Shown here: positions 37,836 to 61,600 of the stretch, piece after piece
Position numbering within the stretch: the stretch's first letter is position 1
How the letters are laid out: each line of letters opens with the position of its first letter
Origin: a virus
Lineage: Duplodnaviria; Caudoviricetes
IMG/VR virus record: IMGVR_UViG_3300030117_007612
Span: 64,001-128,000 of that record
Strand: one strand, 5' to 3'
DNA: 64,000 nucleotides
Program-made: the position numbers and the translations under genes
The notes under the pieces: generated by a model
Told to the model about the DNA's origin: nothing
The model's input: only the letters and a program-made list of their open reading frames with translations
Database searches by the model: none

Positions 37836-38774
37836 ATGCATACCAAAGACGCAATAAATACCCTAAGTGCGGTGTTGGGCACTTGTAGAAAACTAAGCAA
37901 TGATGAGTATTATTTCAAATGCCCTGCATGCGATCATCGAAAGCATAAGCTCGCTATTAATTTGGATAAAAATGCTTTTCATTGTTGGATTTGTGATTAT
38001 CGCGGCCGTAATATTCGCCGGCTTGTTAGGCGTTTTGGTACGTTTGCACAATTACAAGCATGGGACAGATTATCAGGCCAAGTTGATCTTACAGTATTTG
38101 ATTCTTTGTTCGATTCGAGCGTCACTGAGCCGGAAGAAATATTACAACTACCGGTAGAATTCAAAAGCTTAGCAAACAATAGGGCGCCCGCCACTGGCAT
38201 TGCTGCCTTATCGTATTTAAAGAACAGAGACATCACTAAAGAAGATATACTTAAATGGAAAATAGGGTACTGCTTTTCAGGCGAATATGAAAACAGAATT
38301 ATAATTCCTTCTTTTAATAAAGATGGAGATTTGAATTATTTTATTGCGAGAAATTATTCCAATGATTATAAAAAATATAAAAATCCCAAAGCCTCTAAGA
38401 ATATCATTTTTAACGAGCTATATATTGACTGGAATACTGACCTTGTTTTAGTTGAAGGAGTTTTTGATGCTATTCGGGCCGGAAACGCTGCTCCTATATT
38501 GGGTTCAACCCTACGGGCAGAATCAAAATTATTACGAAAGATTGTACAAAACGACACCCCAATCTATGTCGCCTTGGATCCCGACGCTGCCGCAAAAGAG
38601 CGTAAAATTATTCAAATGCTCTTGCGATATGATATCGAGGTTTATAAAGTCGATGTATCTGGCTACGAAGACGTAGGTTCCATGCCAAAAGGTGTTTTTG
38701 AAGAAAGAAAAAGCAACGCCAATTTAATAGATAGAGACGATTATTTGCTATTGGATTTGCTGTCCGCAGTATAA
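37836..38774 (+). CDS. DNA primase (Zn-binding domain + TOPRIM)
   Basis: CPACDH...CWIC zinc finger; RIIIP; VEGVFDA and LDPD TOPRIM acidic motifs. Confidence 0.9.
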   Translation: MHTKDAINTLSAVLGTCRKLSNDEYYFKCPACDHRKHKLAINLDKNAFHCWICDYRGRNIRRLVRRFGTFAQLQAWDRLSGQVDLTVFDSLFDSSVTEPEEILQLPVEFKSLANNRAPATGIAALSYLKNRDITKEDILKWKIGYCFSGEYENRIIIPSFNKDGDLNYFIARNYSNDYKKYKNPKASKNIIFNELYIDWNTDLVLVEGVFDAIRAGNAAPILGSTLRAESKLLRKIVQNDTPIYVALDPDAAAKERKIIQMLLRYDIEVYKVDVSGYEDVGSMPKGVFEERKSNANLIDRDDYLLLDLLSAV

Positions 38775-38827: not shown

Positions 38828-41800
38828 GTGAAATTTGCACATATCAGTGATACTCACATTAAAAATCTAAAGTACCACTACGAATATCGAGTCGTTTTTG
38901 AGCAGCTTTATGAAAAGTTGCGAGAAGAAAAGGTTGACTACATTATTCATTGTGGCGATGTTGCGCATACGAAAACTCAGATATCACCTGAGTATGTTGA
39001 GATGTGTTCATTGTTTTTTGAGAATCTTGCTAATATTGCGCCAACTTACGCAATTTTGGGCAACCACGACGGCAACTTGAAGAACAGTAGTCGTCAAGAT
39101 GCTTTGACGCCGATATTTAACGCGCTTAATCATCCGAACCTTTTCTTGCTAAAAGATTCAGGCGAAACCATTTTGGATGATAAATTTTGCCTTAATGTGT
39201 TGTCTGTTTTTGATCGTGACAATTGGATCAAGCCGTCCGATTCTGACAAGATAAATATTGCACTTTATCATGGTTCTATATCTAATTGCAAGACTGATAT
39301 AAACTGGACGATGACCAATGGCGAGGATGAAATTGGCATCTTTGATGGCTTCGACTTTGCAATGTTGGGAGATATTCATCGGCGCCAATTCTTAGATGAA
39401 GCCGGCCGAGTATGGTATGCAGGTTCCACAGTACAACAGAACCATGGCGAAACAAATGACAAGGGAATATTGATTTGGAATATTGAATCTAAGGACGATT
39501 GGGACATCGACCCTGTTGTTTTCAAGAATCCCAAACCCTTTGTAACGTTGGAGTTAACACAGAAAGGCAGAATGCCTAAAGGTGCAGATGTTCCGGAAGG
39601 CGCGCGCCTTAGACTGGTAAGCAATAACAACTTGCCGTTAAGTGTTATGAAGCGCGCCATTGACATCGCGAAGCATCGTTTTAAACCAGAAAGTGTTACG
39701 TTTCTTAATCGTGCCGCCGGCGAGCGCGGTGATGTGAGTGAAATCACAGACACACTTAAGACTGAGAATCTTCGTGATATAAATATTCAAGAAGAATTGA
39801 TGGATGAGTATCTAAAGGAGTACCAAGTTGACTCTTCCACAATGGAAAAGATTTACGAATTGAATCGAAAATATAAAAAGCTGGTAGAAAATAGCGATGA
39901 TATATCGAGAAACGTGAATTGGAGACTGACAAATTTTGAATTTGATAACTTGTTTAATTACGGAGAAGGCAACAATGTAAGCTTTGAGGATCTCAATGGG
40001 ATTACAGGGATCTTCGGCAAGAACTATTCTGGCAAGAGTAGCATTATTGATGCTGTACTTTGGACACTCTTTAATACAACCTCGAAAAACGAACGTAAGA
40101 ACCTCAATGTCATTAATCAGAACAAAGAGTTCTGCCGCGGCAAACTGACAATCGATGTAGGCCACCTAAGATATACAGTCGAAAGAACAGCTGAAAAATA
40201 TATTAAGCGCCTAAAGGGTGAGGAAACTCTAGAAGCCAAGACCGATTTAAATTTTGAGGTGCATGATCAGGCGACTGGGGAAACTGTATCTTTAAATGGC
40301 CTGAGTCGCAACAACACTGATGCCAACATACGCCGTCATTTTGGTGAGTGCGAAGATTTTCTAATCTCTTCAATGGCCTCACAGCACGGTGCTCTATCAT
40401 TCATTGACGAAGGCTCAACACGCCGTAAAGAAATAATTGCAAAGTTTCTTGATTTAGAGATATTTGAAAAGAAATTTAAATTAGCTAAAGAGGATTCGAC
40501 TGATCTTAAGGGCGCCCTCCGTCGCTTAGAGAGCAGAAATTACGACGAAGAGATAGTCGAGGCCTCCGCCACCTTAGAAGAGAAGAGGGTGGAACTGAAG
40601 CGCCACGAAACTCAATGCGAAATTTTAAAAACAAAAATCGACGATATTACAGAAACGTGTGAATCACTAAAGAATAGTATTGAGGCGATTCCAGAAGAAG
40701 TTATAAATGTAATAGACACAAAGCGGGAAATCAAAAAGAGAAACATGCAGATCGCCTCCTTAGAATTGGAAGGCGCAGAGAACAAAAACATATTAATATC
40801 CAAAAAGGCTACATCTGAAAAGATCATAGAATACCTTGCGAAAATTGATATTGATGCACTGAATCGACAAAACAGCATAATTACAAACCTATCAACACAA
40901 AGACAAGAACAGGAAAACATTTTAAATGATCTGCTCTCCCAAATAGAACAGATTGAGAAAAAGTCAAAATTGCTAGATGGGATTCCTTGCGGCTCTGATT
41001 ATCCTCAGTGTAAGTTTATTAGAGACGCTAATGTCGCTGTTGCAAACTTGCCACACGTGCAACAAGAAAGAGAAAACTCACAAACTCAGTTTAAAATTTT
41101 AGATAAAAAACTATCAAGCATGCGACCGAAAACAGTCGAAGAGCAGCTTGAAAAATACAATCTAGTTTTGCAAAAACAAAACACCGTTACTCATGAGATT
41201 GCGGATTTAAATTTATCAATCGAAAAAGGTCAAGCTTCAATTGAAAGATTAACCTATGAATTGAAAGAGTTTGAGCAGAAAAAACAAAAATATGAAGAAA
41301 ATAAAGAAGTCATCGAAAACTTTGAAGAGTTCTCATCAGAATTAGCAACTTGTCATGCCAACTTAGAGAAGGCAGAGAAACAATACAACAAATGTGAAAA
41401 TCAAAAACTTGAACTTTACAAAGAAATAGGATCATCCGAAGAACGCGTACAAAGCATAAAAGAACAAAAACAGGAATACTTATCTTTACGGGAGGAGTAT
41501 TCAGCCTATGATCTTTATATGCGTTGCATGCATACATCTGGCATTGCTTACGATATTATTAAACGCAAACTTCCAGTTATCAACCAAGAGATCGCGAAAG
41601 TCCTAGCAAACATCGTTGACTTTGAAATATTCTTTGAAGATTCTGGAAAGAAATTTGATATTTTTATCAAGCACCCTCGACACGAACCGAGACCGATTGA
41701 AATGGCATCCGGCGCCGAAAAAACCATGGGGGCCATGGCAATTCGTTTGGCGCTCTTGAGTGTTTCGTCGTTGCCCAAGAGTGATTTATTTATTCTTGAT

Positions 41801-41977
41801 GAACCCGGCACAGCATTAGATGAAGAAAATATGGAAGGTTTTATTCGTATTTTGGAACTAATTAAAGTGTATTTCAAGAACGTCTTGTTGATCTCGCACC
41901 TTGACTCTCTCAAGGACTGTGTTGATATGCAAATTGTGATTGAAAAGAAATCAGGATATGCAAAAGTAAATCAATAG
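38828..41977 (+). CDS. Fused SbcD/Mre11 nuclease - SbcC/Rad50 ATPase (T4 gp47+gp46 equivalent)
   Basis: Phosphoesterase motifs DTH, GD, GNHD, HG, GDIH, YAGS; Walker A GKNYSGKS; coiled coil with CGSDYPQC; signature ASGAEK; Walker B FILDEP; H-loop ISH. Confidence 0.93.
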   Translation: MKFAHISDTHIKNLKYHYEYRVVFEQLYEKLREEKVDYIIHCGDVAHTKTQISPEYVEMCSLFFENLANIAPTYAILGNHDGNLKNSSRQDALTPIFNALNHPNLFLLKDSGETILDDKFCLNVLSVFDRDNWIKPSDSDKINIALYHGSISNCKTDINWTMTNGEDEIGIFDGFDFAMLGDIHRRQFLDEAGRVWYAGSTVQQNHGETNDKGILIWNIESKDDWDIDPVVFKNPKPFVTLELTQKGRMPKGADVPEGARLRLVSNNNLPLSVMKRAIDIAKHRFKPESVTFLNRAAGERGDVSEITDTLKTENLRDINIQEELMDEYLKEYQVDSSTMEKIYELNRKYKKLVENSDDISRNVNWRLTNFEFDNLFNYGEGNNVSFEDLNGITGIFGKNYSGKSSIIDAVLWTLFNTTSKNERKNLNVINQNKEFCRGKLTIDVGHLRYTVERTAEKYIKRLKGEETLEAKTDLNFEVHDQATGETVSLNGLSRNNTDANIRRHFGECEDFLISSMASQHGALSFIDEGSTRRKEIIAKFLDLEIFEKKFKLAKEDSTDLKGALRRLESRNYDEEIVEASATLEEKRVELKRHETQCEILKTKIDDITETCESLKNSIEAIPEEVINVIDTKREIKKRNMQIASLELEGAENKNILISKKATSEKIIEYLAKIDIDALNRQNSIITNLSTQRQEQENILNDLLSQIEQIEKKSKLLDGIPCGSDYPQCKFIRDANVAVANLPHVQQERENSQTQFKILDKKLSSMRPKTVEEQLEKYNLVLQKQNTVTHEIADLNLSIEKGQASIERLTYELKEFEQKKQKYEENKEVIENFEEFSSELATCHANLEKAEKQYNKCENQKLELYKEIGSSEERVQSIKEQKQEYLSLREEYSAYDLYMRCMHTSGIAYDIIKRKLPVINQEIAKVLANIVDFEIFFEDSGKKFDIFIKHPRHEPRPIEMASGAEKTMGAMAIRLALLSVSSLPKSDLFILDEPGTALDEENMEGFIRILELIKVYFKNVLLISHLDSLKDCVDMQIVIEKKSGYAKVNQ

Positions 41978-41989
41978 GAGGTGCACGTG

Positions 41990-42187
41990 ATGGCACAAAC
42001 AAAAGCATTTTTAGACACATGGTTGTCAAAGTTGACCTCTCGGAAACTTATGGTCTGGATAACAGCCACTGCCCTTACTTACGTGGGTCATGTGAGCAGC
42101 GAAGATTGGGTTATAATTTCTGCAATTTATATTGGCGGCCAAACAATAATCGATGGCATTGCTCGCCTCCGGGGTCATAATGATTAA
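41990..42187 (+). CDS. Putative holin-like small membrane protein
   Basis: 65 aa from the ATG at 41990 (AGGAGG SD), two hydrophobic segments; SRK before the first TM segment is typical of small holins. Confidence 0.55.
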   Translation: MAQTKAFLDTWLSKLTSRKLMVWITATALTYVGHVSSEDWVIISAIYIGGQTIIDGIARLRGHND

Positions 42188-42563
42188 AAAACAAATTGTT
42201 GAATTTGTAATAAAATATTGGAAGGAAATAGCAGTAGCGGCATTGGTGGTGGTGGTGATTTTAAAAATGAAGCATGATTACAAACTGATGCAAACCGCTT
42301 ACGAAACTAGAATAGAATCCACACAAGCCCAAATCGAAGGACTAAAGGAGATTCACAAAAAAGAATTGGAAGAGAAGCGACTCCTGATGGAAAGTTTCCT
42401 AGAATCAATGGCAGCAATTGAAAGCGATTACGAGGAGGCAAGAGCAGAACTTGAAGACCTCCGACGAGATAAGAAAGAAGATTATACAAAAAAGTTCAGA
42501 CAAGACAAGGAACAACTAATTAAAGATATAGAAACAACATTCGGGATTGAGTATGTTCCTTAA
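42180..42563 (+). CDS. Putative i-spanin-like protein (N-terminal TM + coiled coil)
   Basis: Start corrected to the ATG at 42180, overlapping the holin stop; WKEIAVAALVVVVILKM TM followed by a charged helical region. Confidence 0.5.
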   Translation: MIKKQIVEFVIKYWKEIAVAALVVVVILKMKHDYKLMQTAYETRIESTQAQIEGLKEIHKKELEEKRLLMESFLESMAAIESDYEEARAELEDLRRDKKEDYTKKFRQDKEQLIKDIETTFGIEYVP

Positions 42564-42975
42564 ATTACTACTAATGTTGTCACTGGCGGCAAATGCAACC
42601 GAGCCCGCTAAGTTCACTATGTTAGAGTACAAACAGCCAGCACCCTTTGAGGGTGTTTTGTTTAATGAATTTGCAATATCAACAGTGCTATCTGATTATG
42701 AAATAGCCGCCTATTCATGCGATATAAGAACTGATTATGAATTAAAAAAGTTGCAAGAAAAATATAATTTTGAATTTGAAAATCTAAAAATAGAACACAA
42801 CTCGCTGATCAATGAGTACGATTTATTCATAATGCAGAAGGATAGAGAAATAAATTCTTTAACCACTGCTCTAAAAAAAACTTCGCCCCGCTACAAATGG
42901 CTGTGGTTTGCTGGTGGGATCCTCATTGGTGGTGCAAGTTCATATGGCGTATATAAATTGTACAATGAAAAATGA
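42553..42975 (+). CDS. Secreted coiled-coil protein with C-terminal TM (spanin-like partner?)
   Basis: MFLKLLLMLSLAANA signal-peptide-like N-terminus without lipobox Cys; coiled coil; C-terminal WLWFAGGILIGGASSYGVY. Confidence 0.45.
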   Translation: MFLKLLLMLSLAANATEPAKFTMLEYKQPAPFEGVLFNEFAISTVLSDYEIAAYSCDIRTDYELKKLQEKYNFEFENLKIEHNSLINEYDLFIMQKDREINSLTTALKKTSPRYKWLWFAGGILIGGASSYGVYKLYNEK

Positions 42976-43351
42976 AAAAGATCTAAATTACATCGCCGCC
43001 GTCGAAAAAGCAATTGCAAAGAAATATGGACAAGAGACGGTACAAAATCCGAAAGGAAATTGGGACGATGAAAAGGAAAAAGAGTACCTTCAACAGATCA
43101 AGGAATTTGCGCAAAAACAACGCAAAATCGAAGAAGGCTCAGAGAAGGTAGATGTTAATGGCATTTTGGTGTCAAAAAAACTACTTAATAAAGAACCCGC
43201 AGGTTCTTGTCCTGTTTGCGGAAAGTATCTTTCTATTGCAAAAGATGACATATGCATCGCAAAATTTAATTGCTGCTTTCAGTGTTACGTAAAATGGGTC
43301 GAGGATCGAGAGGAAAGATGGGCATCTGGATGGCGACCAAATGAAGATTGA
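42965..43351 (+). CDS. Hypothetical protein with C-terminal Cys cluster (putative zinc finger)
   Basis: Start at ATG 42965; CPVC...C....CCFQC. Confidence 0.6.
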   Translation: MKNEKDLNYIAAVEKAIAKKYGQETVQNPKGNWDDEKEKEYLQQIKEFAQKQRKIEEGSEKVDVNGILVSKKLLNKEPAGSCPVCGKYLSIAKDDICIAKFNCCFQCYVKWVEDREERWASGWRPNED

Positions 43352-43649
43352 CGACATTAGAGATTTGATAAGACAAGAGCTTCTTAGTAGAACAAATCAT
43401 GACGTACGTGAAATTAAAAACGAAGTAAATGAGCCACAGCCACCCGACAATGAAGGTCGCATGGCGAAGTCGGAATTATATAAGCTTAAGAATTATGCAG
43501 AAAAGGTAAGCGACATGATAAGCGACACAGAACAACTAGAAGGGTGGGTCCAGTCAAAAATAACTAAGGCTGCTGACTACTTAAGCTCAGTTGCGCACTA
43601 TTTAGAGTATGAGAAATCAAGAGAGTTTTCTCAAGAAGGAGAAGAATAA
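43341..43649 (+). CDS. Small head-module protein with leader-helix variant
   Basis: MKIDDIRDLIRQEL N-terminus; EGRMAKSEL...EGWVQSKITKAADYLSSVAHYLEYE helical domain. Confidence 0.65.
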   Translation: MKIDDIRDLIRQELLSRTNHDVREIKNEVNEPQPPDNEGRMAKSELYKLKNYAEKVSDMISDTEQLEGWVQSKITKAADYLSSVAHYLEYEKSREFSQEGEE

Positions 43650-44206
43650 TGGCTTCAGTGATGGACGTAATCAAAGGATTATCGCAAGCCGCAGCCAATG
43701 TTTACGACGGAGCATTGGATGAAAATGGTAATTATTTAGACGTTGGACTTAGAAGAGAGGAAGGCAACCCCCTAATTGATGAGAGAGTCATTGATGGTTT
43801 TAATGTGAAATTTCATGGCAATAGAATGATACTTTGTTATCATACCGCCGTCAAATTAAAAGAAATCCACAACGGCGGCTTTGAATCAGAAATAGAAAGT
43901 CAAATAAACCAAATCGCCAAATTTTTAAAAACTGAATATCGCAAAGTTACAGGCGACAATGTTTCGCTCACTGCGGAAGGTGAAGTTGACATTTTGGTGC
44001 AAAGCGCTGGCTATCATCGCTCTTGGATTCAGGCTTACATGACTTATAACATTGGCGGCATTGAAGAAGTTCAAACTGTTGGCCAAGCTAGTGAAGATTC
44101 TATGGAGGCTTCTTATCGAAAATTTCTCGATCAAGGAGGCTTTAAAGAGAAGGAAACAAAATCTCGCAAAGCCAATGTTAAAGCAAAGGATAATAAGGAT
44201 AAATAA
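43649..44206 (+). CDS. Hypothetical protein
   Basis: 185 aa, TAATG-coupled, AGGAG SD. Confidence 0.7.
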   Translation: MASVMDVIKGLSQAAANVYDGALDENGNYLDVGLRREEGNPLIDERVIDGFNVKFHGNRMILCYHTAVKLKEIHNGGFESEIESQINQIAKFLKTEYRKVTGDNVSLTAEGEVDILVQSAGYHRSWIQAYMTYNIGGIEEVQTVGQASEDSMEASYRKFLDQGGFKEKETKSRKANVKAKDNKDK

Positions 44207-44209
44207 ATT

Positions 44210-44659
44210 ATGAAACTTACAAAAGAAATACTTAGAGAGATCATTAAGGAAGAAATAGAGAATGCCCGCGATGTGTCAGAGGGCCCTATTGGCTCCGTTG
44301 CCCCTATGTCCACTACAGGCCAACGACGCCCACGTGGCACTGCTCCAAGTCGACCAGTAGAGGAGCCGGATGCTGCAGTGGGTGGGGAAACGACCATGGA
44401 AATTGGAGCTGTCGAAAACATTAAATCGAGACTGGATCAATATATCGCCCAGCCCGGAAACCAAATGAAAGGAAGATTCAACGGTTTGCTCAATTTTCTT
44501 GATGCATATTTGGCCTCTCAAGGTTTGGGCGTTAAAGGCGATTATAGAAAAGAGCGCGGTACCGATACACAACGTAGAACTAAATCAAGACAGGTTGTGC
44601 AAAGAGGCAAAGGCTCTGCTGCTGGCATTGGATTAAAAGAAGGAGAATCCGAAGAATGA
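44210..44659 (+). CDS. IIxEE-leader family protein
   Basis: MKLTKEILREIIKEEI N-terminus. Confidence 0.7.
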   Translation: MKLTKEILREIIKEEIENARDVSEGPIGSVAPMSTTGQRRPRGTAPSRPVEEPDAAVGGETTMEIGAVENIKSRLDQYIAQPGNQMKGRFNGLLNFLDAYLASQGLGVKGDYRKERGTDTQRRTKSRQVVQRGKGSAAGIGLKEGESEE

Positions 44660-44754
44660 AAAACGTACTACACAGATTAGCAAACTTATTTAATAGCGAA
44701 CACTGCTGCTGCTGCTGCGGCTGCTGTAGTTGCGCCGGAGCATGTTGCAAATGA
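44656..44754 (+). CDS. Cys-rich microprotein (32 aa, 10 Cys), metallothionein-like
   Basis: MKNVLHRLANLFNSEHCCCCCGCCSCAGACCK*; ATGA overlaps with both neighbours; AGGAG at 44641; absent from the ORF track because of its size. Confidence 0.7.
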   Translation: MKNVLHRLANLFNSEHCCCCCGCCSCAGACCK

Positions 44755-44981
44755 AAATCACAAAAGAACAATTGCGTAAGATTATTATGGAGGAGATATC
44801 CTCTGAAGGTGTTGTTGACATGGGCGGCGAGCCAGTTGTCACTGGCCCAGAAGGTGATGCATCCGGAGAGGCCCAAGCCGGCGCTCGCCTTAAAGATGTT
44901 ATTTTATATCTCGAAGGTAATGAAAGAGACGACTTGGCCGAACCACTTCGCAAGATTCAAGAAATGCTAGAGATGCTATAA
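44751..44981 (+). CDS. IIxEE-leader family protein
   Basis: Start corrected to ATG 44751: MKITKEQLRKIIMEEI. Confidence 0.7.
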   Translation: MKITKEQLRKIIMEEISSEGVVDMGGEPVVTGPEGDASGEAQAGARLKDVILYLEGNERDDLAEPLRKIQEMLEML

Positions 44982-45009
44982 TTATCGGCAGCAGGATAGG
45001 AGACTCACA

Positions 45010-45438
45010 ATGAAGATTACTGAATCGGAAATCATAAAATATATTAAAGAAGAGATGGAGTCTGATTCGGCTTTAGCTGATGCAATTGTAAAACTGTCCA
45101 ATAAGATAGACAACCTAGACGTGAGCATTGACTATCTGGCATCGGCTCTTACTGGCGAAGATGTTTTAGATATTGGCCTCGCGCAAAAAGCTTTTGGCAG
45201 ATTCAGAGCCGCCCCAACTGTAAGTGTTGGCCGTTCTGACATGTCAGAGGGCCTCGTTACAGAAGATGTCTACGACGAGGCGAAGCAAATTGCTAAAGAT
45301 CCCAAACAGATAGATCATCTCTTCCAGCTTCTACAGGCCGTCGTTAGCGTAGCTGCTGATATGAATATGATGGGTATGCGGCTAATGAAATTAGGAGATC
45401 TTCACAAACATGCGACAGAAAAATTCAAAAACAATTAG
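45010..45438 (+). CDS. IIxEE-leader family protein
   Basis: MKITESEIIKYIKEEM; AGGAG SD. Confidence 0.7.
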   Translation: MKITESEIIKYIKEEMESDSALADAIVKLSNKIDNLDVSIDYLASALTGEDVLDIGLAQKAFGRFRAAPTVSVGRSDMSEGLVTEDVYDEAKQIAKDPKQIDHLFQLLQAVVSVAADMNMMGMRLMKLGDLHKHATEKFKNN

Positions 45439-45685
45439 TAAGTTACAACTTAGGCAGATTGTCAAAGAAGAACTTAGGGCCGTTTTGAACGAAGGGCATT
45501 ATCATGACATGGGCGGCGAAGACGAAATGTACGATGCTTTGGATCCACATGGCATTGCAAAGATGTCAGATGCACAATTAGTAGATGCTGCCTACCGTGA
45601 TGGAATTGAAGAAATTCTAGTTTTAGACAACGAAGGCGATCTTGTAAATCGTGAAGAAGTCATAATGGCACTGAAAAATGTATGA
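45410..45685 (+). CDS. IIxEE-leader family protein
   Basis: ISKLQLRQIVKEELRAVLNE near the N-terminus; stop overlaps the terminase start. Confidence 0.65.
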   Translation: MRQKNSKTISKLQLRQIVKEELRAVLNEGHYHDMGGEDEMYDALDPHGIAKMSDAQLVDAAYRDGIEEILVLDNEGDLVNREEVIMALKNV

Positions 45686-47265
45686 GCTTTCAATTAACCA
45701 AAAAAGATATGATGAAAGAGATCCTAAAGTGCGGCAAGGATCCGACATACTTTCTTAATACATATGCAAGAATTTCACACCCCCTGCACGGCACTATACC
45801 TTTCAGAACATACGATTTTCAACAAGAATTACTAGACGATTTTAATGATTATCGTTTTAATGTGATATTAAAAGCCCGCCAGTTAGGTATTTCGACCATA
45901 ACTGCGGGCTATGTTGTTTGGCTGATGTTGTTTCATCGCGATAAAAACGTTTTGGTTATGGCAACCAAGTTTGGTACCGCCGCAAACCTCGTTAAAAAAG
46001 TCAAAAGCATAATGAAAAACCTGCCTGACTTTATAAAAATTGCAGAAATTTCTGTTGACAACCGTACATCATTCGAATTATCAAATGGATCTTTTATTAA
46101 AGCTTCCTCAACTTCTGGTGATGCTGGTCGTTCTGAATCACTCTCCCTGCTTGTGCTTGATGAGGCTGCTCACATTGAGGGACTAGAAGAGTTGTGGACC
46201 GGTCTATATCCCACGCTGTCAACGGGTGGTAGGTGTATTGCACTATCAACCCCAAATGGTGTTGGAAATTGGTTTCACAAAACATACATGGAAGCTGACT
46301 CTGGGGCAAACAATTTTCACCCCACGAACTTACCATGGGATGTGCATCCAGATCGCGATCAGCAATGGTTTGAAAAAGAGACAGCAAATATGTCTAGACG
46401 ACAAATTGCTCAAGAGCTAGAGTGTAATTTTAATACTTCTGGCGAAACTGTAATTGATCCGGAAGATTTGGAAAAGCTAGCAAAAAACGTGAGAGAGCCA
46501 AAATACAAAACAGCATTTGATAGAAATTTTTGGATTTGGGAAGAGCACGATCCATCGTGCAATTATCTCATGGTTGCTGATGTTGCAAGAGGCGATGGGA
46601 CCGACTATTCTGTATTTCACATTATCAAGCTTGAAACTTTAGAGATCATAGGGGAATACCAAGGGAAACCCACACCAGACTTATTTGGCAATATGATTAA
46701 TCAAATAGGTAGAGAGTTTGGAGATTGTTTGGTTGTTGTTGAAAACAACAGTATCGGATACGCTGTATTGGAAAAATTGGTTGAGTTTGGATATCCGAAT
46801 GTTTACTATTCAGTTAAGTCAACACATGAATATATCGATCAATATCAAGCCGAAAGCCAAACAAATGCGGTGATGGGCTTTTCAACTACTTCAAAGACGC
46901 GTCCTTTAATAGTTGCCAAACTTGAAGAATTCATAAGAAATGAACTAATTACTGTGAATTCTGGTCGTTTAATAAACGAAATGAGGACTTTTATTTGGCA
47001 GTACGGAAAACCACAGGCCATGAGAGGGTACAACGATGACTTGGTTATGTCGTTGGCAATTGCATGTTGGATTAGGGACACCGCACTCCAAGTTAACCAA
47101 AGAAGCATGGATTATCAAAGGGCTTTTTTAAGCTCTATAGTCTACACAAAAACGAGTTTTGATACTACAATTAAGGGAATGGACAAAAACAAAAGCACAA
47201 AAATGACCGATAGAATAGCTGAACAAAAAGAAAGCTATGATCATTTAATGTGGCTAATAAAGTGA
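45682..47265 (+). CDS. terL: Terminase large subunit (T4 gp17-like)
   Basis: KARQLGIST Walker A, LLVLDEAAHI Walker B, STPNG motif III, nuclease VADVARG...DYS and NDDLVMSLAIA. Confidence 0.97.
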   Translation: MSFQLTKKDMMKEILKCGKDPTYFLNTYARISHPLHGTIPFRTYDFQQELLDDFNDYRFNVILKARQLGISTITAGYVVWLMLFHRDKNVLVMATKFGTAANLVKKVKSIMKNLPDFIKIAEISVDNRTSFELSNGSFIKASSTSGDAGRSESLSLLVLDEAAHIEGLEELWTGLYPTLSTGGRCIALSTPNGVGNWFHKTYMEADSGANNFHPTNLPWDVHPDRDQQWFEKETANMSRRQIAQELECNFNTSGETVIDPEDLEKLAKNVREPKYKTAFDRNFWIWEEHDPSCNYLMVADVARGDGTDYSVFHIIKLETLEIIGEYQGKPTPDLFGNMINQIGREFGDCLVVVENNSIGYAVLEKLVEFGYPNVYYSVKSTHEYIDQYQAESQTNAVMGFSTTSKTRPLIVAKLEEFIRNELITVNSGRLINEMRTFIWQYGKPQAMRGYNDDLVMSLAIACWIRDTALQVNQRSMDYQRAFLSSIVYTKTSFDTTIKGMDKNKSTKMTDRIAEQKESYDHLMWLIK

Positions 47266-47274
47266 GTTTAAAAT

Positions 47275-49236
47275 ATGGCAATTAATCCTAAAAATCCAAG
47301 AAATCCGCAATCTCAATTATTCAAGAGTTTGACAAGATTGTTTTCCGGACCAATCATTAACTATCGTAGTCAGACCGGTCGAAAGATCAGAAGACAACAC
47401 TTGGATAAATATTCGTCAAGGTTCCGTTCAGCCAGTGGGCAACAGTTTAAACGGAGTACCTACAATCCACTAGACGTCGTTGCTGTTAATGCAATTGCAA
47501 ATCAAAGAAGAAGCGAAAGATATATTGACTTCGATCAAATGGAATACATGCCAGAGATTGCCTCGTCCTTAGACATATACGCAGATGAGATGACAACACA
47601 TTCAAGTCTCCAGCCAATGTTAAAAATACACTGCACCAACGAAGAAATCAAAGCAGTGCTTGATGTTCTGTATCACAACATAATGAACATTAATTACAAT
47701 TTATTTGGATGGTGCCGAACGATGTCTAAATACGGCGACTTCTTTTTGTATTTAGATATCGACGAAAAATATGGAGTTAAGTCAACCATAGCCCTGCCCT
47801 CTCAGGAGGTCGAAAGGCTTGAGGGATTAGACGCAACAAACCCAAATTATATTCAATATCAGTGGAATAATGCCGGAATGACGTTTGAGAATTGGCAGAT
47901 ATCTCACTTTAGAATCTTAGGAAACGATAAGTATGCGCCATACGGTACATCAATTTTAGAGCCGGCCCGAAGGATTTGGCGCCAACTTACTTTAATGGAA
48001 GACGCAATGATGGCATATCGTGTCATTCGCTCACCAGAGAGAAGGGTCTTCAAGATCGATGTTGGTTCAATTCCACCACAAGATGTCGAACAGTATATGC
48101 AAAAAATTGTAACACAGATGAAGCGCCACCAAGTTGTTGATCCTGACACCGGGCGCGTTGACCTTAGATATAATCCATTAAGTATTGAGGAGGATTACTT
48201 TATTCCTGTTCGTGCAAATTCCTCATCTGATATAACAACGCTCCCGGGCGGCTCGAACGCAACAGAGATTGACGATATTAAATATTTAAGAGATAAGCTG
48301 TTTTCTGCATTAAAGGTGCCACAATCTTATTTGTCACGCGGCGAAGGCGCCGATGAAGACAAAACGACATTAGCACAAAAAGATATCAGATTCGCAAGAA
48401 CCATTCAAAGATTACAGCGCGTTGTAGTATCTGAGTTAGAAAAGATTGGAATCATTCACTTATACACATTAGGTTTTAGAGGAGACGATCTTCTCAGTTT
48501 CAAGTTGGCATTAAACAATCCATCAAAAATCGCAGAACTGCAGGAACTTGAACACTGGAGATCTAAATTTGATACGGCCGCTGCAGCAAATGAGGGTTAT
48601 TTTTCGAGACGATGGGTTGCTGAAAAACTATTCAATATGTCCGAAGAAGAATTCCTTCGCAATCAAAGAGAGTTGTTTTATGATCGCAAGCAGGATTCTG
48701 CGTTGCAAGCGATTGCCGAAGCAGGCGCCCTCGGCGCCGAAGGCGGCGGATTGGGTGGCGATTTGGGTGGTGACCTAGGAGGCCTCGAAGCCGCCGAGGG
48801 ACCCGAAGCAGATCTAGAAACCGCACCGCCCCCCGCCGATGAGGTACCCCCGGGTGACGAATCAATGCTTCTCACTTCCCCAGAGGGCCCACCCCCGGGC
48901 CATAGAGATTCGCCTACAATTTATAAATCACCAGACGGCCATGGCACCAGCAAATATCATAGAGTAAAAGTCGACCAACGTCGTCTTGGGGCTTTAAGAA
49001 GAAACATGGCTAGGGCTGCCTCTCCGGAGGTAAATACCTATAGAAAGAACAATCTAGGCGCGCCAGAATTAAGAACCCATGCTCGCGGAAGTATTTACGA
49101 GCAACAAGGCCCTATTTATAATGACAATGAAAATCGTCTGTTCGAAATCAATCACGAAGTTAGGGGCTTAATTAAGTCGCTTGAAGAAAAAGAAAACATA
49201 GTGGAGTTAAAAAAGGATGAAACCAAAGCACAATAA
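47275..49236 (+). CDS. Portal vertex protein (T4 gp20-like)
   Basis: ARRIWRQLTLMEDAMMAYRVIRSPERRVFKIDVG, EDYFIPVR, DDIKYLRDKLFSALKVPQS; directly after terL. Confidence 0.96.
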   Translation: MAINPKNPRNPQSQLFKSLTRLFSGPIINYRSQTGRKIRRQHLDKYSSRFRSASGQQFKRSTYNPLDVVAVNAIANQRRSERYIDFDQMEYMPEIASSLDIYADEMTTHSSLQPMLKIHCTNEEIKAVLDVLYHNIMNINYNLFGWCRTMSKYGDFFLYLDIDEKYGVKSTIALPSQEVERLEGLDATNPNYIQYQWNNAGMTFENWQISHFRILGNDKYAPYGTSILEPARRIWRQLTLMEDAMMAYRVIRSPERRVFKIDVGSIPPQDVEQYMQKIVTQMKRHQVVDPDTGRVDLRYNPLSIEEDYFIPVRANSSSDITTLPGGSNATEIDDIKYLRDKLFSALKVPQSYLSRGEGADEDKTTLAQKDIRFARTIQRLQRVVVSELEKIGIIHLYTLGFRGDDLLSFKLALNNPSKIAELQELEHWRSKFDTAAAANEGYFSRRWVAEKLFNMSEEEFLRNQRELFYDRKQDSALQAIAEAGALGAEGGGLGGDLGGDLGGLEAAEGPEADLETAPPPADEVPPGDESMLLTSPEGPPPGHRDSPTIYKSPDGHGTSKYHRVKVDQRRLGALRRNMARAASPEVNTYRKNNLGAPELRTHARGSIYEQQGPIYNDNENRLFEINHEVRGLIKSLEEKENIVELKKDETKAQ

Positions 49237-52992: not shown

Positions 52993-53217
52993 ATGCCATA
53001 CACATCATCAGGCAAGTGCGTTTATAAAAAAAACAAAGATGGCTCTCGTGGTAAAAAAGTGGGATGTACAAAGGGTCCCGTAAAGCAGTACCTTAAGGCT
53101 TTGTATGCTAATACCGATGAGGGCTTGGATAAAACTGTAACAGAAGAAACAATGAGACTAATTATTAGAGAAGAATTACAAGAATATCTAAAGGAGATTA
53201 CAAATGACAATGGATGA
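52993..53217 (+). CDS. Small basic protein with C-terminal IIREE helix
   Basis: MPYTSSGKCVYKK...GC...; C-terminal TEETMRLIIREELQEYLKE. Confidence 0.65.
   Translation: MPYTSSGKCVYKKNKDGSRGKKVGCTKGPVKQYLKALYANTDEGLDKTVTEETMRLIIREELQEYLKEITNDNG
53158..53165 (+). promoter_or_regulatory. CTANTTA box (putative late promoter) upstream of the tubulin gene
   Basis: CTAATTAT embedded in the upstream ORF, starting 46 nt before ATG 53204. Confidence 0.35.
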
Positions 53218-54253
53218 TTTTGATTTTATAGATCACTATGGCGAAGCCGAAGAGGTAGCCAACGAAGATCAGCTACCAGATAACGAAGTTGGCTCATCGC
53301 TAAACTGTGCTATTATTGGCGTTGGTGGAGGGGGCGGCAAAATGGCAAAAGCCTTTTTAGATATCGGCTACAATAAAACATTGTTGATTAATACTACTCC
53401 AAAAGATATCCCAAGCGACGTCGATGAATCACATGTAGTGCTGATTCCGGATGCTGATGGGATCGGAAAAGATGTCAGCTTGGGTAAATCCGTACTTGAC
53501 GCCAATAGCGCCGTTGTTGAAGATGCCTTGCGGACAAAACTTGGCAAGGTTGATTGGCTTATCGTATTATCAGGCGGTGGCGGAGGTACTGGTAGTGCCA
53601 CTGCTTCATTGCATTCTGTTTTCGAAAGATACTTAAAATCTGTTCAGGCCGATGGTGACATACTTTATGTCGCATCGTGGCCAACAGCACAAGAGTGCTT
53701 GAATCCCACAATTAGCAAAAATGCACTGTCACTTATTAATGACGTATCAAAGCACTCGCACATTGTGATCGACAATGAAAGGCAGGTTAAGTTACTCAGA
53801 GGCAAGGTTGGCATGCTTGGAATGTTTCCGTTTGCCAATACGGCGTTTGCCAAGCTTTTAACGCAGGTGCTCAGATTGTCTGCAGAACAGTCACCAATCC
53901 AGTCTTTTGATTCAAAAGATCTTGCTAGGTGCTTAAGCACAGATGGTAGAATGTTTATTGGGTCTACGATGATTGCTGACCCGGCCAGTCCCAACCTTGG
54001 ATCGATGATTTTACAAAATTGCCTGAAGCGCTCTCCCTGCCCGCAGCCCTCTGGGCGCCCAAAAACAGGCACACTACTATTGGTGGTGAGCCCTGAGATG
54101 GCGTCTGATCCAGAGATCAGCAAGCACCTAGATAATGCAATTTCGTACGTCGGAGGAAGAACAGAGACACTTTTTTCCGGAGTCTATGTTAAAGAGAACG
54201 TACCGGGCTTGGTTGCTATCTTGTGCATGAATGGTTTACCCAAAGGAAATTAG
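53204..54253 (+). CDS. Tubulin/FtsZ-family GTPase (PhuZ/TubZ/CetZ-like)
   Basis: GVGGGGGK, INTT, GIGKD, signature SGGGGGTGS, IVIDNE, FPFANT and T7-loop-like SFDSKDL. Confidence 0.92.
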   Translation: MTMDDFDFIDHYGEAEEVANEDQLPDNEVGSSLNCAIIGVGGGGGKMAKAFLDIGYNKTLLINTTPKDIPSDVDESHVVLIPDADGIGKDVSLGKSVLDANSAVVEDALRTKLGKVDWLIVLSGGGGGTGSATASLHSVFERYLKSVQADGDILYVASWPTAQECLNPTISKNALSLINDVSKHSHIVIDNERQVKLLRGKVGMLGMFPFANTAFAKLLTQVLRLSAEQSPIQSFDSKDLARCLSTDGRMFIGSTMIADPASPNLGSMILQNCLKRSPCPQPSGRPKTGTLLLVVSPEMASDPEISKHLDNAISYVGGRTETLFSGVYVKENVPGLVAILCMNGLPKGN

Positions 54254-54267
54254 CGGGAGATGTTAAA

Positions 54268-54735
54268 ATGAAAATAAGCAGACACCGCCTCATGCAGATT
54301 ATTCAAGAAGAGTATGATATAATGTTGCGTTCTGAAAAAAAAGAACGACTTGACGAAAGTGTTGTTTTAGAAGCTTCCATGTCTCAAAGCGAGGTGGCTC
54401 TCGCTTCAATTGAATCGGCGATTAACGGCACCTTGCACAATTTGTTAAAAGACTTTGTAGCTGAAACGGAAATTAAAAGCATTGTCGATAGTGCAGCTGA
54501 CGCCGTTGCAGGCAGGATTGGCATTGAGCTAGAAAGCATATATAATGAAAAGCAGGCACCTCTTGAGGAGGTGGTGATGACTCAAGAGCCAATGGATATT
54601 CTAGAAGAATTAAGAAGCTTGACAAATAAGTTATCATCGATATCCGGCAACGCACAGCCGTTTGAAAATATAGCATCGGATATGATAATACAGATTAATG
54701 ATTTAGAGGAAATTTTAACAACGGAGAAGGAATGA
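54268..54735 (+). CDS. IIxEE-leader family protein
   Basis: Start corrected to ATG 54268 (GGGAG SD): MKISRHRLMQIIQEEY. Confidence 0.7.
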   Translation: MKISRHRLMQIIQEEYDIMLRSEKKERLDESVVLEASMSQSEVALASIESAINGTLHNLLKDFVAETEIKSIVDSAADAVAGRIGIELESIYNEKQAPLEEVVMTQEPMDILEELRSLTNKLSSISGNAQPFENIASDMIIQINDLEEILTTEKE

Positions 54736-55067
54736 TAGAGTTGCTTAATTTATTGTGGTTTGTACTGGCGGCGTATGGTTTAACTCAAATTCTTATTTAC
54801 GGAACAATTTTCAACAAGATAAGGCCGACTAAACAGTGGCTTAATGGATTTGGAGAATTATTCCACTGCCCCATGTGTATGGGTTTTTGGGTTGGCGTAT
54901 TTTTATGCGGCGTTAGTACGTATACGCAACTATTTACGTTTGAGACATCTTTAATAAATTATTTTATTTTAGGTTGTGTTAGTTCAGGTACATCATATAT
55001 CCTGAACGTTTTATTTTGCGATAACGGAATACAAATAGGAGTTAGAAATGGGAAAGACATGGACTAG
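54732..55067 (+). CDS. Small membrane protein with CxxC (DUF1360-like)
   Basis: Three hydrophobic segments and LFHCPMCMGFW, resembling the DUF1360 C-P-x-C-x-x-x-W motif. Confidence 0.55.
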   Translation: MIELLNLLWFVLAAYGLTQILIYGTIFNKIRPTKQWLNGFGELFHCPMCMGFWVGVFLCGVSTYTQLFTFETSLINYFILGCVSSGTSYILNVLFCDNGIQIGVRNGKDMD

Positions 55068-55113
55068 TAAATGGATGTTGCAGCCAGTTCGCCATTGCTG
55101 CAAGGGGAGTTAG
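55048..55113 (+). CDS. Putative 21-aa microprotein
   Basis: MGKTWTSKWMLQPVRHCCKGS*; AGGAG SD upstream; stop 2 nt before the protease ATG. Confidence 0.45.
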   Translation: MGKTWTSKWMLQPVRHCCKGS

Positions 55114-55115
55114 CT

Positions 55116-55721
55116 ATGGGTAAGGTACTTTTACGAGAATTTTATGAATTATGTGAAGGGGGCGTCTGTCAGGATCTTTTAACCGAGGAAGAGAAGAGGT
55201 TTGTGGCCGGCGGCGGTATGATTTTGTCTGGAATTATGCAAAAATCAGACACTGTTAATGGAAATGGAAGAATTTATCCACACAAAGTTCTTGTTCGTGA
55301 GGTTGAAAACTACTCTAAGCTTGTAAAAGAGCGACGAGCGCTCGGAGAATTAGACCACCCAGACGACTCAGTGATCAATCTTAAGAATGCATCACACCTT
55401 TGCACCAGCATATGGTGGGAGGGGCAAGATGTCATGGGCAAGGTTAGAATTTTGGACACACCATCTGGAAAAGTACTGCAAGAGCTTGTAAAATCAGGTG
55501 TTAGCCTCGGAATTTCTTCAAGAGGAATGGGTTCTGTTAAAGAAAGCCAAAATGGCACAATTGTTGAAGATGATTTTCAGTTAATTTGTTTTGATTTTGT
55601 ATCAGAACCCTCAACACCCGGCGCCTACATGATGAAAGAGTCTAAAAGCTTAAAAGAATCAAACATCTTCACAAAAGCAGATAAAATCAACAGATTAATC
55701 AACGAGGCTCTAGATGAATAA
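55116..55721 (+). CDS. Prohead core protein protease (T4 gp21-like)
   Basis: NGNGRIYP, GELDHP (catalytic His), GISSRGMGS (catalytic Ser), DFVSEPS; start corrected to ATG 55116 (GGGGAG SD). Confidence 0.96.
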   Translation: MGKVLLREFYELCEGGVCQDLLTEEEKRFVAGGGMILSGIMQKSDTVNGNGRIYPHKVLVREVENYSKLVKERRALGELDHPDDSVINLKNASHLCTSIWWEGQDVMGKVRILDTPSGKVLQELVKSGVSLGISSRGMGSVKESQNGTIVEDDFQLICFDFVSEPSTPGAYMMKESKSLKESNIFTKADKINRLINEALDE

Positions 55722-56130
55722 GGCAGATTTAAAGAAGCTTATAAAACCACTAGTGAAAGAGTGCGTACAAGAAACCCTTCTAGAAGAAGGGTTGCTTTCT
55801 GGAATTGTAAGTGAGGTGGTAAAAGGAGTTTCCTCGGCACCACCAATCGTCGAGAAGGCAAAAACAGCAAAAACAGCACCGAAACAAGAACTTGATTACA
55901 AAAGAATAGCAGAGACCAAAAAGAAGATAAATCAACACCAAAAAAGACTATTAGACGCCATCGGCTCAGACGCCTACAATGGCGTTGATTTATTTGAGGG
56001 TACAAAACCGATTTCTGATAGCGGTGCCCCCAAGCCGGGCTCAACTGATTTGGGAGAACATGACGATCCGGGTGTTCCTTTCGCCGGACCATTGGCTGAA
56101 GCTTCCAAAATGTGGGGTAAATTAGTTTAA
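55714..56130 (+). CDS. Head-module protein with leader-helix variant
   Basis: MNKADLKKLIKPLVKECVQETLLEE. Confidence 0.65.
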   Translation: MNKADLKKLIKPLVKECVQETLLEEGLLSGIVSEVVKGVSSAPPIVEKAKTAKTAPKQELDYKRIAETKKKINQHQKRLLDAIGSDAYNGVDLFEGTKPISDSGAPKPGSTDLGEHDDPGVPFAGPLAEASKMWGKLV

Positions 56131-58699: not shown

Positions 58700-61600
58700 T
58701 GGCCAAAATAGTAATAACCTCAGCAGGTATATCCGGTTCAGCAGGATCGGTAGCCATTACAGGCTCATTTGTTGTTACCGGATCCGAAGGCGAAATTACA
58801 GTTTCCGGAAGCGGAACCGAGCTTAGTGGCGCCCATGGATCCTCGACCACCACATCGGGCTCATCTACATTCTACGACGCCGCCGGCAGCAGCACGTCAA
58901 CCTCTGCGACTGGCTCAGTATCTACCGGCTCAGCAGGCTCCGCAACGCACGGCTCTGGTTCCTCAACATACACCGATGCTGATGGCACACACTCAACTTC
59001 TGCAACTGGTTCATACACTACGGGTTCCGGCGGATCAACATCGACAACATCAGGCTCTACATCCCACACAAGTGCTGATGGTAGCACCACTTCGACATCT
59101 GCGACTGGTTCTTATATTAGTGGCTCCGGAGGCGGAGCCGGAACTGGCTCTGGCGGCTCAGCAACCCACAGTTCGGGTTCATCAATTTACACAAGCGCTG
59201 ACGGTAGCACACACTCAACTTCTGCAACTGGCTCATTAACCACAGGCTCAGGAGGTTCCACCGAAACAACATCAGGATCTACATCGTATACAGACGCTGG
59301 TGGAAGCACCACTACTGTTTCTGCAACTGGTTCATATACCACAGGTTCTGGAGGTTCCACCGAAACAACAACGGGATCATCTACATACACAGGCGCTGAT
59401 GGTGGCACAGCCATAGTCTCTTCAGTTGGATACGTAGCTAGTGGTTCCGGTGGAGAGTCATCTACAACATCTGGCTCAACCAGCTACACAGACGCTGGTG
59501 GAAGCAGTACTTCGACATCTGCGACCGGCTCATCTATGACTGGTTCGGGCGGATCTGCAACCCATGGATCGGGTTCATCCACATATACAGACGCCGGCGG
59601 ATGTACTGGGTCGATGTCCGCAACTGGTTCATACACTACGGGTTCCGGCGGATCAACATCGACAACATCAGGCTCGACCACACACACAGACGCTGGTGGA
59701 AGCAGTACTTCGACATCTGCGACCGGCTCATCTATGACTGGTTCGGGCGGATCTGCAACCCATGGATCGGGTTCATCCACATATACAGACGCCGGCGGAA
59801 GTACCACTTCGACATCTGCGACTGGCTCTTATATGAGCGGGTCGACCCCGGGAACCACTACCACAACGCCGGGCGGGACTACATACGAAGACACAGACAG
59901 CACAACTATGCACTCAACCAGTGGTTCGCACTATAGTGGCTCAACGCCGGAAAGCGGCTCTGCCGGCAGCACAACGATTACAGATGGCACAGTTGAGGTA
60001 ACTGGATCCGTCACAATTTCTGGCTCAAGCCCCGCCTTAACAATTATGGCCGGCGAACTAATAGTTAGTGGCTCATCGATACTTGGCTCAACCATCGACC
60101 ACACAACCACTATAGGCAGCCACCTTACAGCATCCTATGGATTGGTTGCGCCAACACACGGAATTAGCGGAGCATATGTTACAGCCTATGATGGTCGTTT
60201 CCCGGGTCACGTGTCATCATCTCTTTATAAAGGCTCGATGGTCTCTGCTAGCTTGTTAGTGACAGGTGGAGAAGTTAAAGCACACCGCGGTACATTCGGC
60301 TTGATGGTTACTGAGTTTCTTACGATGTCAAAGGGCGCCCTTGTTGAGGATGATGACAAAGTCCACTTTGGCACAGATCAAGAATCACACATCAGGTACG
60401 ATGAGGCCGGCCAAGATTTCCTAACAATTTCAGGCTCAGATGCAGGTGGCCTTGTTCTAAGCGGTTCTAGCTTGGTAATCGACACTGACACCGTGGAAAG
60501 CGGTTCCCGCGCCGGCGGCGGAAGCTACTTGGCTATGACAACAACTGGTAAAATTGTGTTGTCGACTCCAGATGGCGGCGGCGGCGGTTCCGCTAGAAGC
60601 GTTTCGGGTGATGACGACGATGGCGTTATAACTTGGAAAACATCTGATAACACTTTTACTGTTGAGGGCAATCTTACTTTTGACGGTAACACACTTACCG
60701 TCGGCGGTCTGGGCGTTGTAACCGGTAGTCAGTTAATGGCGTATGGCATAACCGGATCGCTAGCGACAATTCAAGAGATTACTGGTGGCTGGGCTGATAT
60801 GCATAAGTTTGCCGGCGACAAGGTCGAAGTTGGCACTCACGTTTCATCTTCGCTTCTGTATGGTACAACATTGTCTGCGTCAACTCTTGTAAGTGGCGGT
60901 TTGCATATGGGCCATACCGGCAAATTTGATATTCTGTCAGCATCGACGGTGTATGCTCACGCCTTCTCCCCATCGACCGTATCAGCATCTACAGAAATAA
61001 CCGGCGGCGCCGTCTCGGCATTTGGAATTACTGGAACACTCGGAACATTCAGTGGCGTCGTCAGTGCATCTTCTTACGAAGGTTTTGCTGTGCGAACCAC
61101 ACACGGAGAACACGCTGGTACAGTCTCTGCATCAGTATTCATAGGATCGAATGTATCAGCCTCAACAGAAATCACCGGTGGTTGGCACAGAGGACACACT
61201 GGCAAATTTGATATTCTGTCAGCATCGACGATACATGCTCATGTCTTCTCTCCATCGACTATCTCCGCCTCGCTATATTTAACTGGTGGTCATGTTTATG
61301 CATACGGTATAACCGGCTCAAAAGCGACAATTACAAGCATCAGTGCTACGGAAGTCACATCATCTGTATTGTTGGGATATTCGCATACTGGCGACGAATT
61401 AATTGCACACAGCCATGTATCAGCGGCTCTATTCTTAACCGGTGGGCACGTCTATGCTTACGGCGTTACCGCTTCATTGGGAACATTCAGCGGCGTCGTC
61501 AGTGCGTCTTCTTATGAGGGTTTTGCCGTACGAACTACTCATGGCGAACATGCTGGCACAGTTTCTGCATCAGTATTCATAGGATCGAATGTATCAGCTT

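Follow-up and report, generated by a model that had tools for sequence, protein, structure and literature searches.

A translationally coupled, cysteine-rich microprotein gene of T4-like marine phages and its possible role as a metal-thiolate cluster module

This report concerns a stretch of 64,000 nt of viral DNA (bases 64001-128000 of the 203,368-bp IMG/VR record IMGVR_UViG_3300030117_007612, rated complete by CheckV), called here the window, to which all coordinates refer unless another contig is named, and a very small gene located on its + strand at 44656..44754. The gene consists of 32 codons and TGA and its product, MKNVLHRLANLFNSEHCCCCCGCCSCAGACCK, is a microprotein in which, according to the translation, 10 of the 32 residues are Cys. 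An earlier note made from the letters of the window had proposed that this open reading frame (ORF) is a real, coupled microprotein gene missed by annotation. This proposal is supported by the homologues, by the ratio of non-synonymous to synonymous variation (pN/pS) and by Shine-Dalgarno-like sites, and the ORF is a genuine translationally coupled protein-coding gene, the peptide of which is under purifying selection. The family to which it belongs is a single-copy accessory gene of a broad clade of T4-like marine myoviruses (150-290 kb). The best explanation overall, in which moderate confidence can be placed, is that this genuine family gene would encode a metal-thiolate cluster microprotein equipped with a docking helix. 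The first interpretation has therefore survived in its main part (a real, coupled and unannotated gene), whereas variation of the cysteine run by slippage and a tie to the head operon, both put forward at the same time, have not.

The DNA around the microgene is arranged as it had been described, and the 32-aa ORF with 10 Cys was found again in the sequence of the window. The start ATG (44656-44658, + strand) overlaps the TGA of the upstream ORF (44657-44659), while the stop TGA (44752-44754) overlaps the ATG of the downstream gene (44751-44753), and in this way ATGA coupling at both ends (44656-44659 and 44751-44754) was confirmed. The same applies to the Shine-Dalgarno-like AGGAG, situated at 44641..44645 and 10 nt 5' of the ATG, and to the (TGC)5 run at 44704..44718, which codes Cys17-Cys21. 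The remaining two + frames across the microgene are closed, as had been claimed, by stops (TGA/TAG in one and TAA/TAG in the other) and have no usable start before the downstream gene. The microprotein itself comprises a basic amphipathic helix of residues 2-13, including His6, followed by His16-Cys5-Gly-Cys2-Ser-Cys-Ala-Gly-Ala-Cys2-Lys. The upstream gene (44210..44659, +; 149 aa, MKLTKEILREIIKEE...), the stop of which overlaps the microgene start, is one of a set of small proteins with the N-terminus 'MK[IL]TK' and had no PHROG match; the downstream 'MKITK' gene (44751..44981, +; 76 aa, MKITKEQLRKIIMEE...) has its start in the stop of the microgene. No promoter- or terminator-like site was found at the microgene, and the predicted RNA folding of its region is no better than that of shuffled sequences (z = 0.42).

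Homologues were collected from IMG/VR and from marine metagenome contigs with the use of degenerate DNA patterns, and the pooled set comprises at least 145 distinct members with the consensus M-K-x-Φ-L-H-[KR]-L-x-N-L-F-[ND]-x-x-H-C5-G-C2 and three further Cys. The pattern for H-C5-G-C2 was present in 87 IMG/VR contigs, about 83 of which code for the same N-terminus MKxΦLH[KR]LxNLF[ND]xxH. A pattern anchored in the N-terminus and demanding only H-C-C gave 57 contigs; HCCCCCGCC was found in 53 of them, and the others had HCCCCGTC, HCCCCCYCC and HCCCCCDCC (one each) or, in one case, a copy truncated where the locus ends. A third pattern (F-[ND]-x2-H-C5), applied to JGI, ENA and Tara metagenome contigs, brought family members in 87 of the 120 matches listed, Tara scaffolds included. 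The 145 pooled peptides are 31-49 residues long, the typical size in the family being 31-36 residues. Exactly 10 Cys, about 30% of the residues, occur in 135 of them and exactly 2 His in 136; the first Cys run equals five in 144 and is followed by G-C-C in 140, and the last three Cys are arranged variously, with C-x2-C-x-G-x-C as the commonest tail next to C-x2-G-C-C, C-C-C and others. Two members have 9 Cys, and one of these (L124) has an additional His. Phe is found at consensus position 12 in more than 90% of members and often also at position 4, and the net charge of the peptides is on average about +3. AT-hook-like or basic C-terminal tails are present in six variants (e.g. ...KVVRRRGRPRKNK), and the AT-hook-like core RRRGRPRK or TRRGRPKKK was noticed in the C-terminal extensions of L121, L144, L148, L155, L167, L252 and L285 as well as of P0002 and P0004; such tails suggest association with DNA.

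In 185,579 cellular species genomes (596 Gb) the H-C5-G-C2 pattern was matched only 20 times, and 18 of the matches are unrelated high-GC frames. The two genuine ones lie in metagenome-assembled genomes (MAGs) labelled Pelagibacter (L200, NHHP01000006.1, 'Pelagibacter sp. TMED166') and Halobacteriovorax (L196). The contig of L200 can be regarded as a misbinned phage contig because a terminase 65% identical to that of the window is present on it together with the microgene; a second contig of this MAG carries another terminase, and in the Halobacteriovorax MAG a related terminase is found on a contig other than that of the microgene. Contigs of the phage clade thus occur in both MAGs, which looks like binning contamination or possibly a hint at the host. 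Two unusual loci were also observed in the collection. In one contig (L127:609-830, - strand) the microgene is duplicated in tandem, its second copy being shortened, degenerate (MKKILNKKHCCCCCGCCKWPIPL...) and apparently in decay, and in another (L128:7616-8074, - strand) there is an extremely Cys-rich open frame of 150 codons (…CCHCCCCGCCCGCCHCCCCCGCCHCCCCCCC…) without the family N-terminus, which could be an out-of-frame repeat or a different Cys-rich protein.

Selection at the protein level can be read from the homologues. Synonymous codon variation occurs at the conserved Leu, His, Asn, Phe, Cys and Gly positions. Pairwise pN/pS equals 0.20 over 22 codons in the frame of the microprotein and rises to 0.40 when limited to the 13 N-terminal codons, on which the search patterns imposed no constraint; in the two other frames it is 0.8-1.8. 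A GGAG, GAGG or AGGA is placed 4-16 nt upstream of the start in 121 of the 145 members, or in 142 if a looser, purine-rich match is allowed. The next gene overlaps the microgene or starts within 15 nt of it in 61 of 74 distinct contexts, and 33 of the 74 have an ATGA or TAATG overlap. The earlier note had suggested that the (TGC)5 run might vary by slippage, but this was not borne out: the run equals five in 144 of the 145 peptides, its five codons are in most homologues a mixture of TGC and TGT in roughly even numbers and not a pure repeat, and no length variant was met in population contigs. Marine metagenome runs of several studies contain the stretch of the window, and in contigs from three studies which span 44543-44801 the Cys run is free of insertions and deletions, the change R7K being present in one of these contigs; other family members occur in the same runs as partial matches which diverge past the conserved core.

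Despite such conservation, the family is almost wholly absent from annotation. The peptide of the window and three typical members (31-34 residues) are missing from a collection of 15 billion proteins, and the few family clusters that are present there are nameless. A profile of 71 members compared with 1.84 billion protein representatives recovered 8 proteins, mostly longer tailed variants or read-through miscalls. In one protein from this search (P0005, 114 aa) the last two-thirds of the microprotein follow on some 80 residues which seem, by eye, to resemble the N-terminus of an LL-diaminopimelate aminotransferase; it is probably the product of a chimeric contig or of a miscalled frame. Four members scanned with PHROGs, Pfam and NCBIfam gave no match (the latter two at E up to 10), neither did the family profile in PDB, and a search of the ESM Atlas by features returned no usable match. 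Among 50,697 GenBank phage records no match was found by blastn with the surrounding 3.6 kb; tblastn with the peptide was also negative there, which is uninformative given the short query and the low-complexity filter that was on. In the literature searched on phage metallothioneins, on the motif and on Cys-rich small phage genes the family was not found. The statement that no counterpart is known from phages thus holds for Pfam, PHROGs, NCBIfam, PDB and the literature searched.

The carriers of the family are related phages, with TerL (large terminase) 47-65% identical to that of the window. In four large carriers (190-289 kb, complete or near-complete; terminases 47-62% identical to the window's) there is one copy of the microgene each, at a distance of 60-130 kb from the terminase and usually after primase, RuvC or SbcCD genes. 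The position in the head module is therefore peculiar to the lineage of the window, and the claimed role in the head operon, which is also at odds with five relatives having the same head module and no microgene, cannot be upheld. Across loci the commonest neighbours include a DnaG-like primase, which adjoins the microgene immediately on its upstream side in 16 loci, a probable RuvC-like resolvase (recognised by sequence resemblance alone, with no Pfam match), SbcCD and an M50 peptidase. Downstream there are commonly small genes with MK[IL]TK... or MKLLLENWRKY... starts, and in about half of the family loci the next gene bears the MK[IL]TK-type motif. For other carriers, 95 representative proteins of the neighbourhood were compared with known families, and 25 of the 48 families matched were listed; the rest of the neighbourhood is of the usual T4-like kind (portal gp20, prohead protease S77, gp32, RecA-like and Thy1). 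In a 38.8-kb phage contig (L162:437-1183) a cysteine synthase gene of the cysK/cysM type (TIGR01136, E = 1e-56; cut by the locus end) begins 6 nt after the microgene. Genes similar to cysK are also found 11 and 65 kb from the microgene in the carriers G002 and G004, respectively, while none is present in the genome of the window nor in five non-carriers. Cysteine synthase was rejected as a linked partner, since it adjoins the microgene in one contig only and elsewhere is distant or absent; it can be taken as a hint at most.

How the gene came to its place can be followed by comparison with close relatives. One IMG/VR contig (L001/L005/L085) is about 99% identical in this region and has the same ORF with the single change R7K. 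In the nearest distinct relative, L086, the terminase of which is 96% and the downstream protein 89% identical to those of the window, both flanking genes are present, there is no microgene and the upstream stop overlaps the downstream start directly (GAATAATGAAAATTACAAAAG), with a single copy of the 8-nt sequence that in the window occurs twice. As L086 has both flanking genes, a single repeat and no ORF, the microgene of the window can be described as a 95-nt cassette bounded by direct repeats AATGAAAA, the left one at 44655..44662 (+), containing the microgene ATG and the upstream TGA, and the right one at 44750..44757 (+), containing the microgene TGA and the downstream ATG. The cassette is placed exactly at the start codon of a gene of the MKITK family and therefore the coupling is preserved on both sides. 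Two further relatives (L087 and L088, 77%) are likewise devoid of the microgene. In the five nearest near-complete relatives (terminase 73-77% identical, same head module) no C4-x-C2 motif in family context was found, their sole match lying antisense within an ORF of 490 aa. The family motif is likewise missing from the cultured relatives Flavobacterium phage immuto, Microcystis phage Mel-JY01 and LR756508; the single C4-x-C2 match of immuto is antisense inside the tail-spike gene and was rejected as a family member. The earlier note had named lack of syntenic conservation as an argument against the gene: the slot is indeed empty in the nearest relative, but the gene itself is widely conserved elsewhere. 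The sporadic distribution indicates gain and loss, and the cassette, which fits exactly between two coupled genes, is a clean example of the mobility of a microgene.

With regard to function, the ligand set of the microprotein would consist of the 10 Cys and 2 His, His6 being in the helix and His16 directly before C5-G-C2. The numbers of Cys and His are kept while the tail is rearranged, and because of this a defined thiolate cluster may be postulated. This composition, together with the zinc-knuckle-like tail C-x2-C-x-G-x-C, suggests folding of the peptide around a polynuclear metal-thiolate cluster, for which roughly 3-4 Zn/Cd ions, several Cu(I) ions or an Fe-S cluster would be the candidates. 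Docking to a partner would be the task of the basic amphipathic helix at the N-terminus, and in those variants which have AT-hook-like RRRGRPRK tails this partner would be DNA; the peptide could thus act in the infected cell as a minimal metallothionein or cluster module. In the AlphaFold2 model residues 2-11 form a helix and the remainder, the Cys region included, is coil of low confidence (pLDDT, the predicted local distance difference test, about 60-66); an unstructured Cys region in such a model may be compatible with a fold dependent on a cofactor. A complex predicted for two copies of the microprotein and four Zn obtained a score of 0.15, which is below the mark and speaks neither for nor against the cluster. 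Several points weigh against a metal-cluster function. In Pfam, NCBIfam and PDB no metallothionein, zinc-finger or Fe-S family was matched, even with E up to 10; in known metal sites a succession of five Cys is unusual; the clustering of neighbours gave no constantly adjoining gene, and hence no partner pointing to a pathway; and the invariance of H-C5-G-C2 comes partly from the search patterns, two of which relax that constraint.

Other explanations for the same facts have to be weighed against the metal-thiolate cluster. It is rather unlikely, in our assessment, that the peptide acts through its thiols or five disulfides without metal, be it as a redox buffer, a radical scavenger, a covalent cross-linker or a basic peptide packaged in the manner of internal head proteins. 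The fixed even number of Cys (10) would also suit five disulfides, but the bacterial cytoplasm is reducing, the microprotein is without a signal peptide and the two conserved His are better suited to metal ligation. This explanation is also favoured by the net charge of about +3 and the AT-hook-like tails of some variants, by the location of the microgene among small genes whose MK[IL]TK..IIKEE N-termini resemble T4 capsid-targeting sequences, and by a gp21-type Peptidase_S77 near the microgene in one carrier locus; the microprotein, however, is devoid of the L/I-x-E cleavage motif of the neighbouring proteins and in most genomes its gene follows early/middle replication genes, not head genes. 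The chance that the ORF is an accident of a 95-nt insertion scar or spacer and gives no product is negligible. It is true that the same slot is empty in the nearest relative and that the sole near-identical copy (L001) differs by one change which is non-synonymous, but at least 145 distinct homologues with conservation at the protein level, Shine-Dalgarno-like sites and synonymous variation refute this explanation.

The arrangement of a leader-like helix and a Cys-rich half brings to mind the precursor of a ribosomally synthesised and post-translationally modified peptide (RiPP), in which the Cys-rich part would be the core converted to thiazoles, as in thiazole/oxazole-modified microcins (TOMMs) of the streptolysin S type, or cross-linked by a radical S-adenosylmethionine (SAM) enzyme, as in Cys-rich RiPPs of the SCIFF/ranthipeptide type. 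The five-Cys run has its parallel in SagA (CCCCC), and the F-x-x-x-L of many leaders, as in MKKFLHKL, is reminiscent of FxxxB, the motif by which TOMM leaders are recognised. The enzymes for such a modification are not in evidence: YcaO is absent from the complete 203-kb genome, no radical SAM/SPASM maturase adjoins the microgene, the only radical SAM gene lying 57 kb from it with a sulfotransferase on one side and a cytidylyltransferase on the other, and the 25 neighbour families listed include no maturase, YcaO or radical SAM family. Moreover, no NCBIfam model of RiPP precursors was matched (E up to 10), there is no cleavage motif for a leader, and the 'core' is conserved more than the 'leader', which is the opposite of most RiPPs; a RiPP precursor is thus considered improbable. 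A similarly small probability is given to a regulatory leader ORF, the peptide of which would have no function and the Cys-codon run of which would tie its own translation and that of the next gene to charged tRNA-Cys, as a sensor of sulfur or cysteine. Here the ATGA/TAATG overlaps with the downstream gene speak in favour, as do the Cys codons, which make up 10 of 16 (5 + 2 + 3), so that a run of the sensed codon is present, and the cysteine synthase gene that follows the microgene in one contig. Nevertheless, this explanation fails because conservation extends over the entire peptide (helix, the two His and Gly22 included; pN/pS beyond the run equals 0.4), the downstream genes vary between loci and there is no RNA switch: terminator and antiterminator are lacking, the stop-start overlap leaves no spacer and the folding is no better than that of shuffles, as given above. 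Besides, the total number of Cys is fixed even where their positions shift, the C-terminal AT-hook extensions would make no sense in a pure leader, and no bias between Cys codons was found.

The metal-thiolate cluster with a docking helix consequently stays the preferred explanation, and a bolder version of it can be put forward tentatively, as possible but doubtful: the family may be the first virus-encoded family of metallothionein-like metal-cluster proteins, encoded by a tiny auxiliary gene that escapes gene callers, with a new His-Cys5-Gly-Cys2 motif and wide occurrence in ocean phages. In the course of infection it would capture or redirect scarce trace metals (Zn, Cu, Fe) or else reduced sulfur, some variants delivering the cluster to DNA by means of the AT-hook. 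There is a substantial chance that the family lies beyond the known Cys-rich cluster-binding microproteins, i.e. that it is something undescribed. Regardless of the outcome, a conserved family in many abundant marine phages has been almost wholly missed by annotation, and its sharply defined motif (10 Cys and 2 His, five of the Cys consecutive) provides a simple chemical hypothesis. If metal binding is true, the handling of trace metals or sulfur would join the known ways in which ocean viruses reprogram their hosts and a new minimal scaffold for cluster binding would be gained; if it is false, five invariant consecutive Cys under strong selection still need an explanation.

In the window as a whole, the large ORFs are all on the + strand. 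The microgene is preceded by a DnaG-like primase (37836-38774, +) and an SbcCD-like nuclease (38828-41977, +), and lies in a series of small genes without PHROG matches (42153-45685), most of which begin MK[IL]TK..L..II.EE; further on there are the large terminase (45682-47265, +) and a T4-type portal (47275-49236, +). By terminase, the nearest cultured phages are Flavobacterium phage immuto (46.6%) and Microcystis phage Mel-JY01 (43.5%). The N-terminal motif MK[IL]TKxxLxxIIKEE is common to many otherwise unrelated small proteins (42153-45685 and also 54223-56130 of the window, L003, L086 and many of the loci L098-L184) and terminates in I-x-E, like the T4 capsid-targeting sequence with its gp21 cleavage site; a second set of small proteins begins MKLLLENWRKY, and near the microgene of one carrier locus there is a gene for Peptidase_S77, the prohead protease of the T4 gp21 type. 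These small proteins could be internal head proteins. Outside the window (G000:C1:49783-53319, L211) genes for a sulfotransferase, a 565-aa radical SAM protein and a cytidylyltransferase stand side by side and are likely a cluster of the phage for modification of sugars or nucleotide sugars. The window also holds very large + strand ORFs at 1-5940 (>1979 aa), 9835-21543 (3902 aa), 22661-26848 (1395 aa) and 58699-63054 (1451 aa), and at 53204-54253 a 349-aa protein with weak PHROG matches, tubulin PhuZ among them (E = 5e-4).

When the microprotein is set beside known systems, it has features in common with several of them. Like the streptolysin S-type TOMM precursors (SagA, ClosA, LlsA) it is short and has a leader-like N-terminal part followed by a poly-Cys stretch; in contrast to them, it has few Ser/Thr, no cleavage site and a Cys region more conserved than the N-terminus, and cyclodehydratase and dehydrogenase genes are found neither in the genome of the window nor among the listed neighbour families of carriers. 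With attenuator leader peptides (hisL, pheL) it shares a very short ORF in which codons of one type are repeated, placed directly upstream of another gene and coupled to it, but it is selected throughout, alternative hairpins are missing and the downstream genes vary. The commonest tail of the family, C-x2-C-x-G-x-C, is similar to the zinc motif of DnaJ (C-x2-C-x-G-x-G); it is, however, single and not paired as in the DnaJ-type zinc knuckle, is preceded by C5-G-C2 and gave no profile match. The accessory genes of the plastic regions of T4-like phages, such as the internal-protein loci, are likewise located among small, fast-changing genes with a common N-terminal motif, and the microgene is gained and lost, as they are, as a cassette placed where gene starts are conserved (8-nt repeat), in carriers which have T4-type portal, gp32 and prohead protease genes. 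It differs from the T4 internal-protein loci in having an N-terminus of its own and no L/I-x-E site, its neighbours being only putative internal proteins. As far as bacterial metallothioneins are concerned (SmtA/BmtA, Pfam PF02069, and the mycobacterial MymT), the microprotein is outside every metallothionein family tested by sequence. Of the features by which metallothioneins are recognised in practice, low mass and Cys-dense motifs are present, while aromatic residues, which should be few or absent, do occur as Phe and two His in the N-terminal helix, outside the Cys region. The microprotein is about half the size of the bacterial proteins, has no sequence similarity to them, is encoded by a phage and is distinguished by the five-Cys run, by the AT-hook tails of some members and by its N-terminal helix, which is conserved, basic and amphipathic and contains two Phe. 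Nevertheless, like them it is very small, dense in Cys and built on Cys-Cys, C-x-C and C-x2-C spacings, and its ligand inventory of 10 Cys and 2 His is close to the Zn4Cys9His2 cluster of SmtA.
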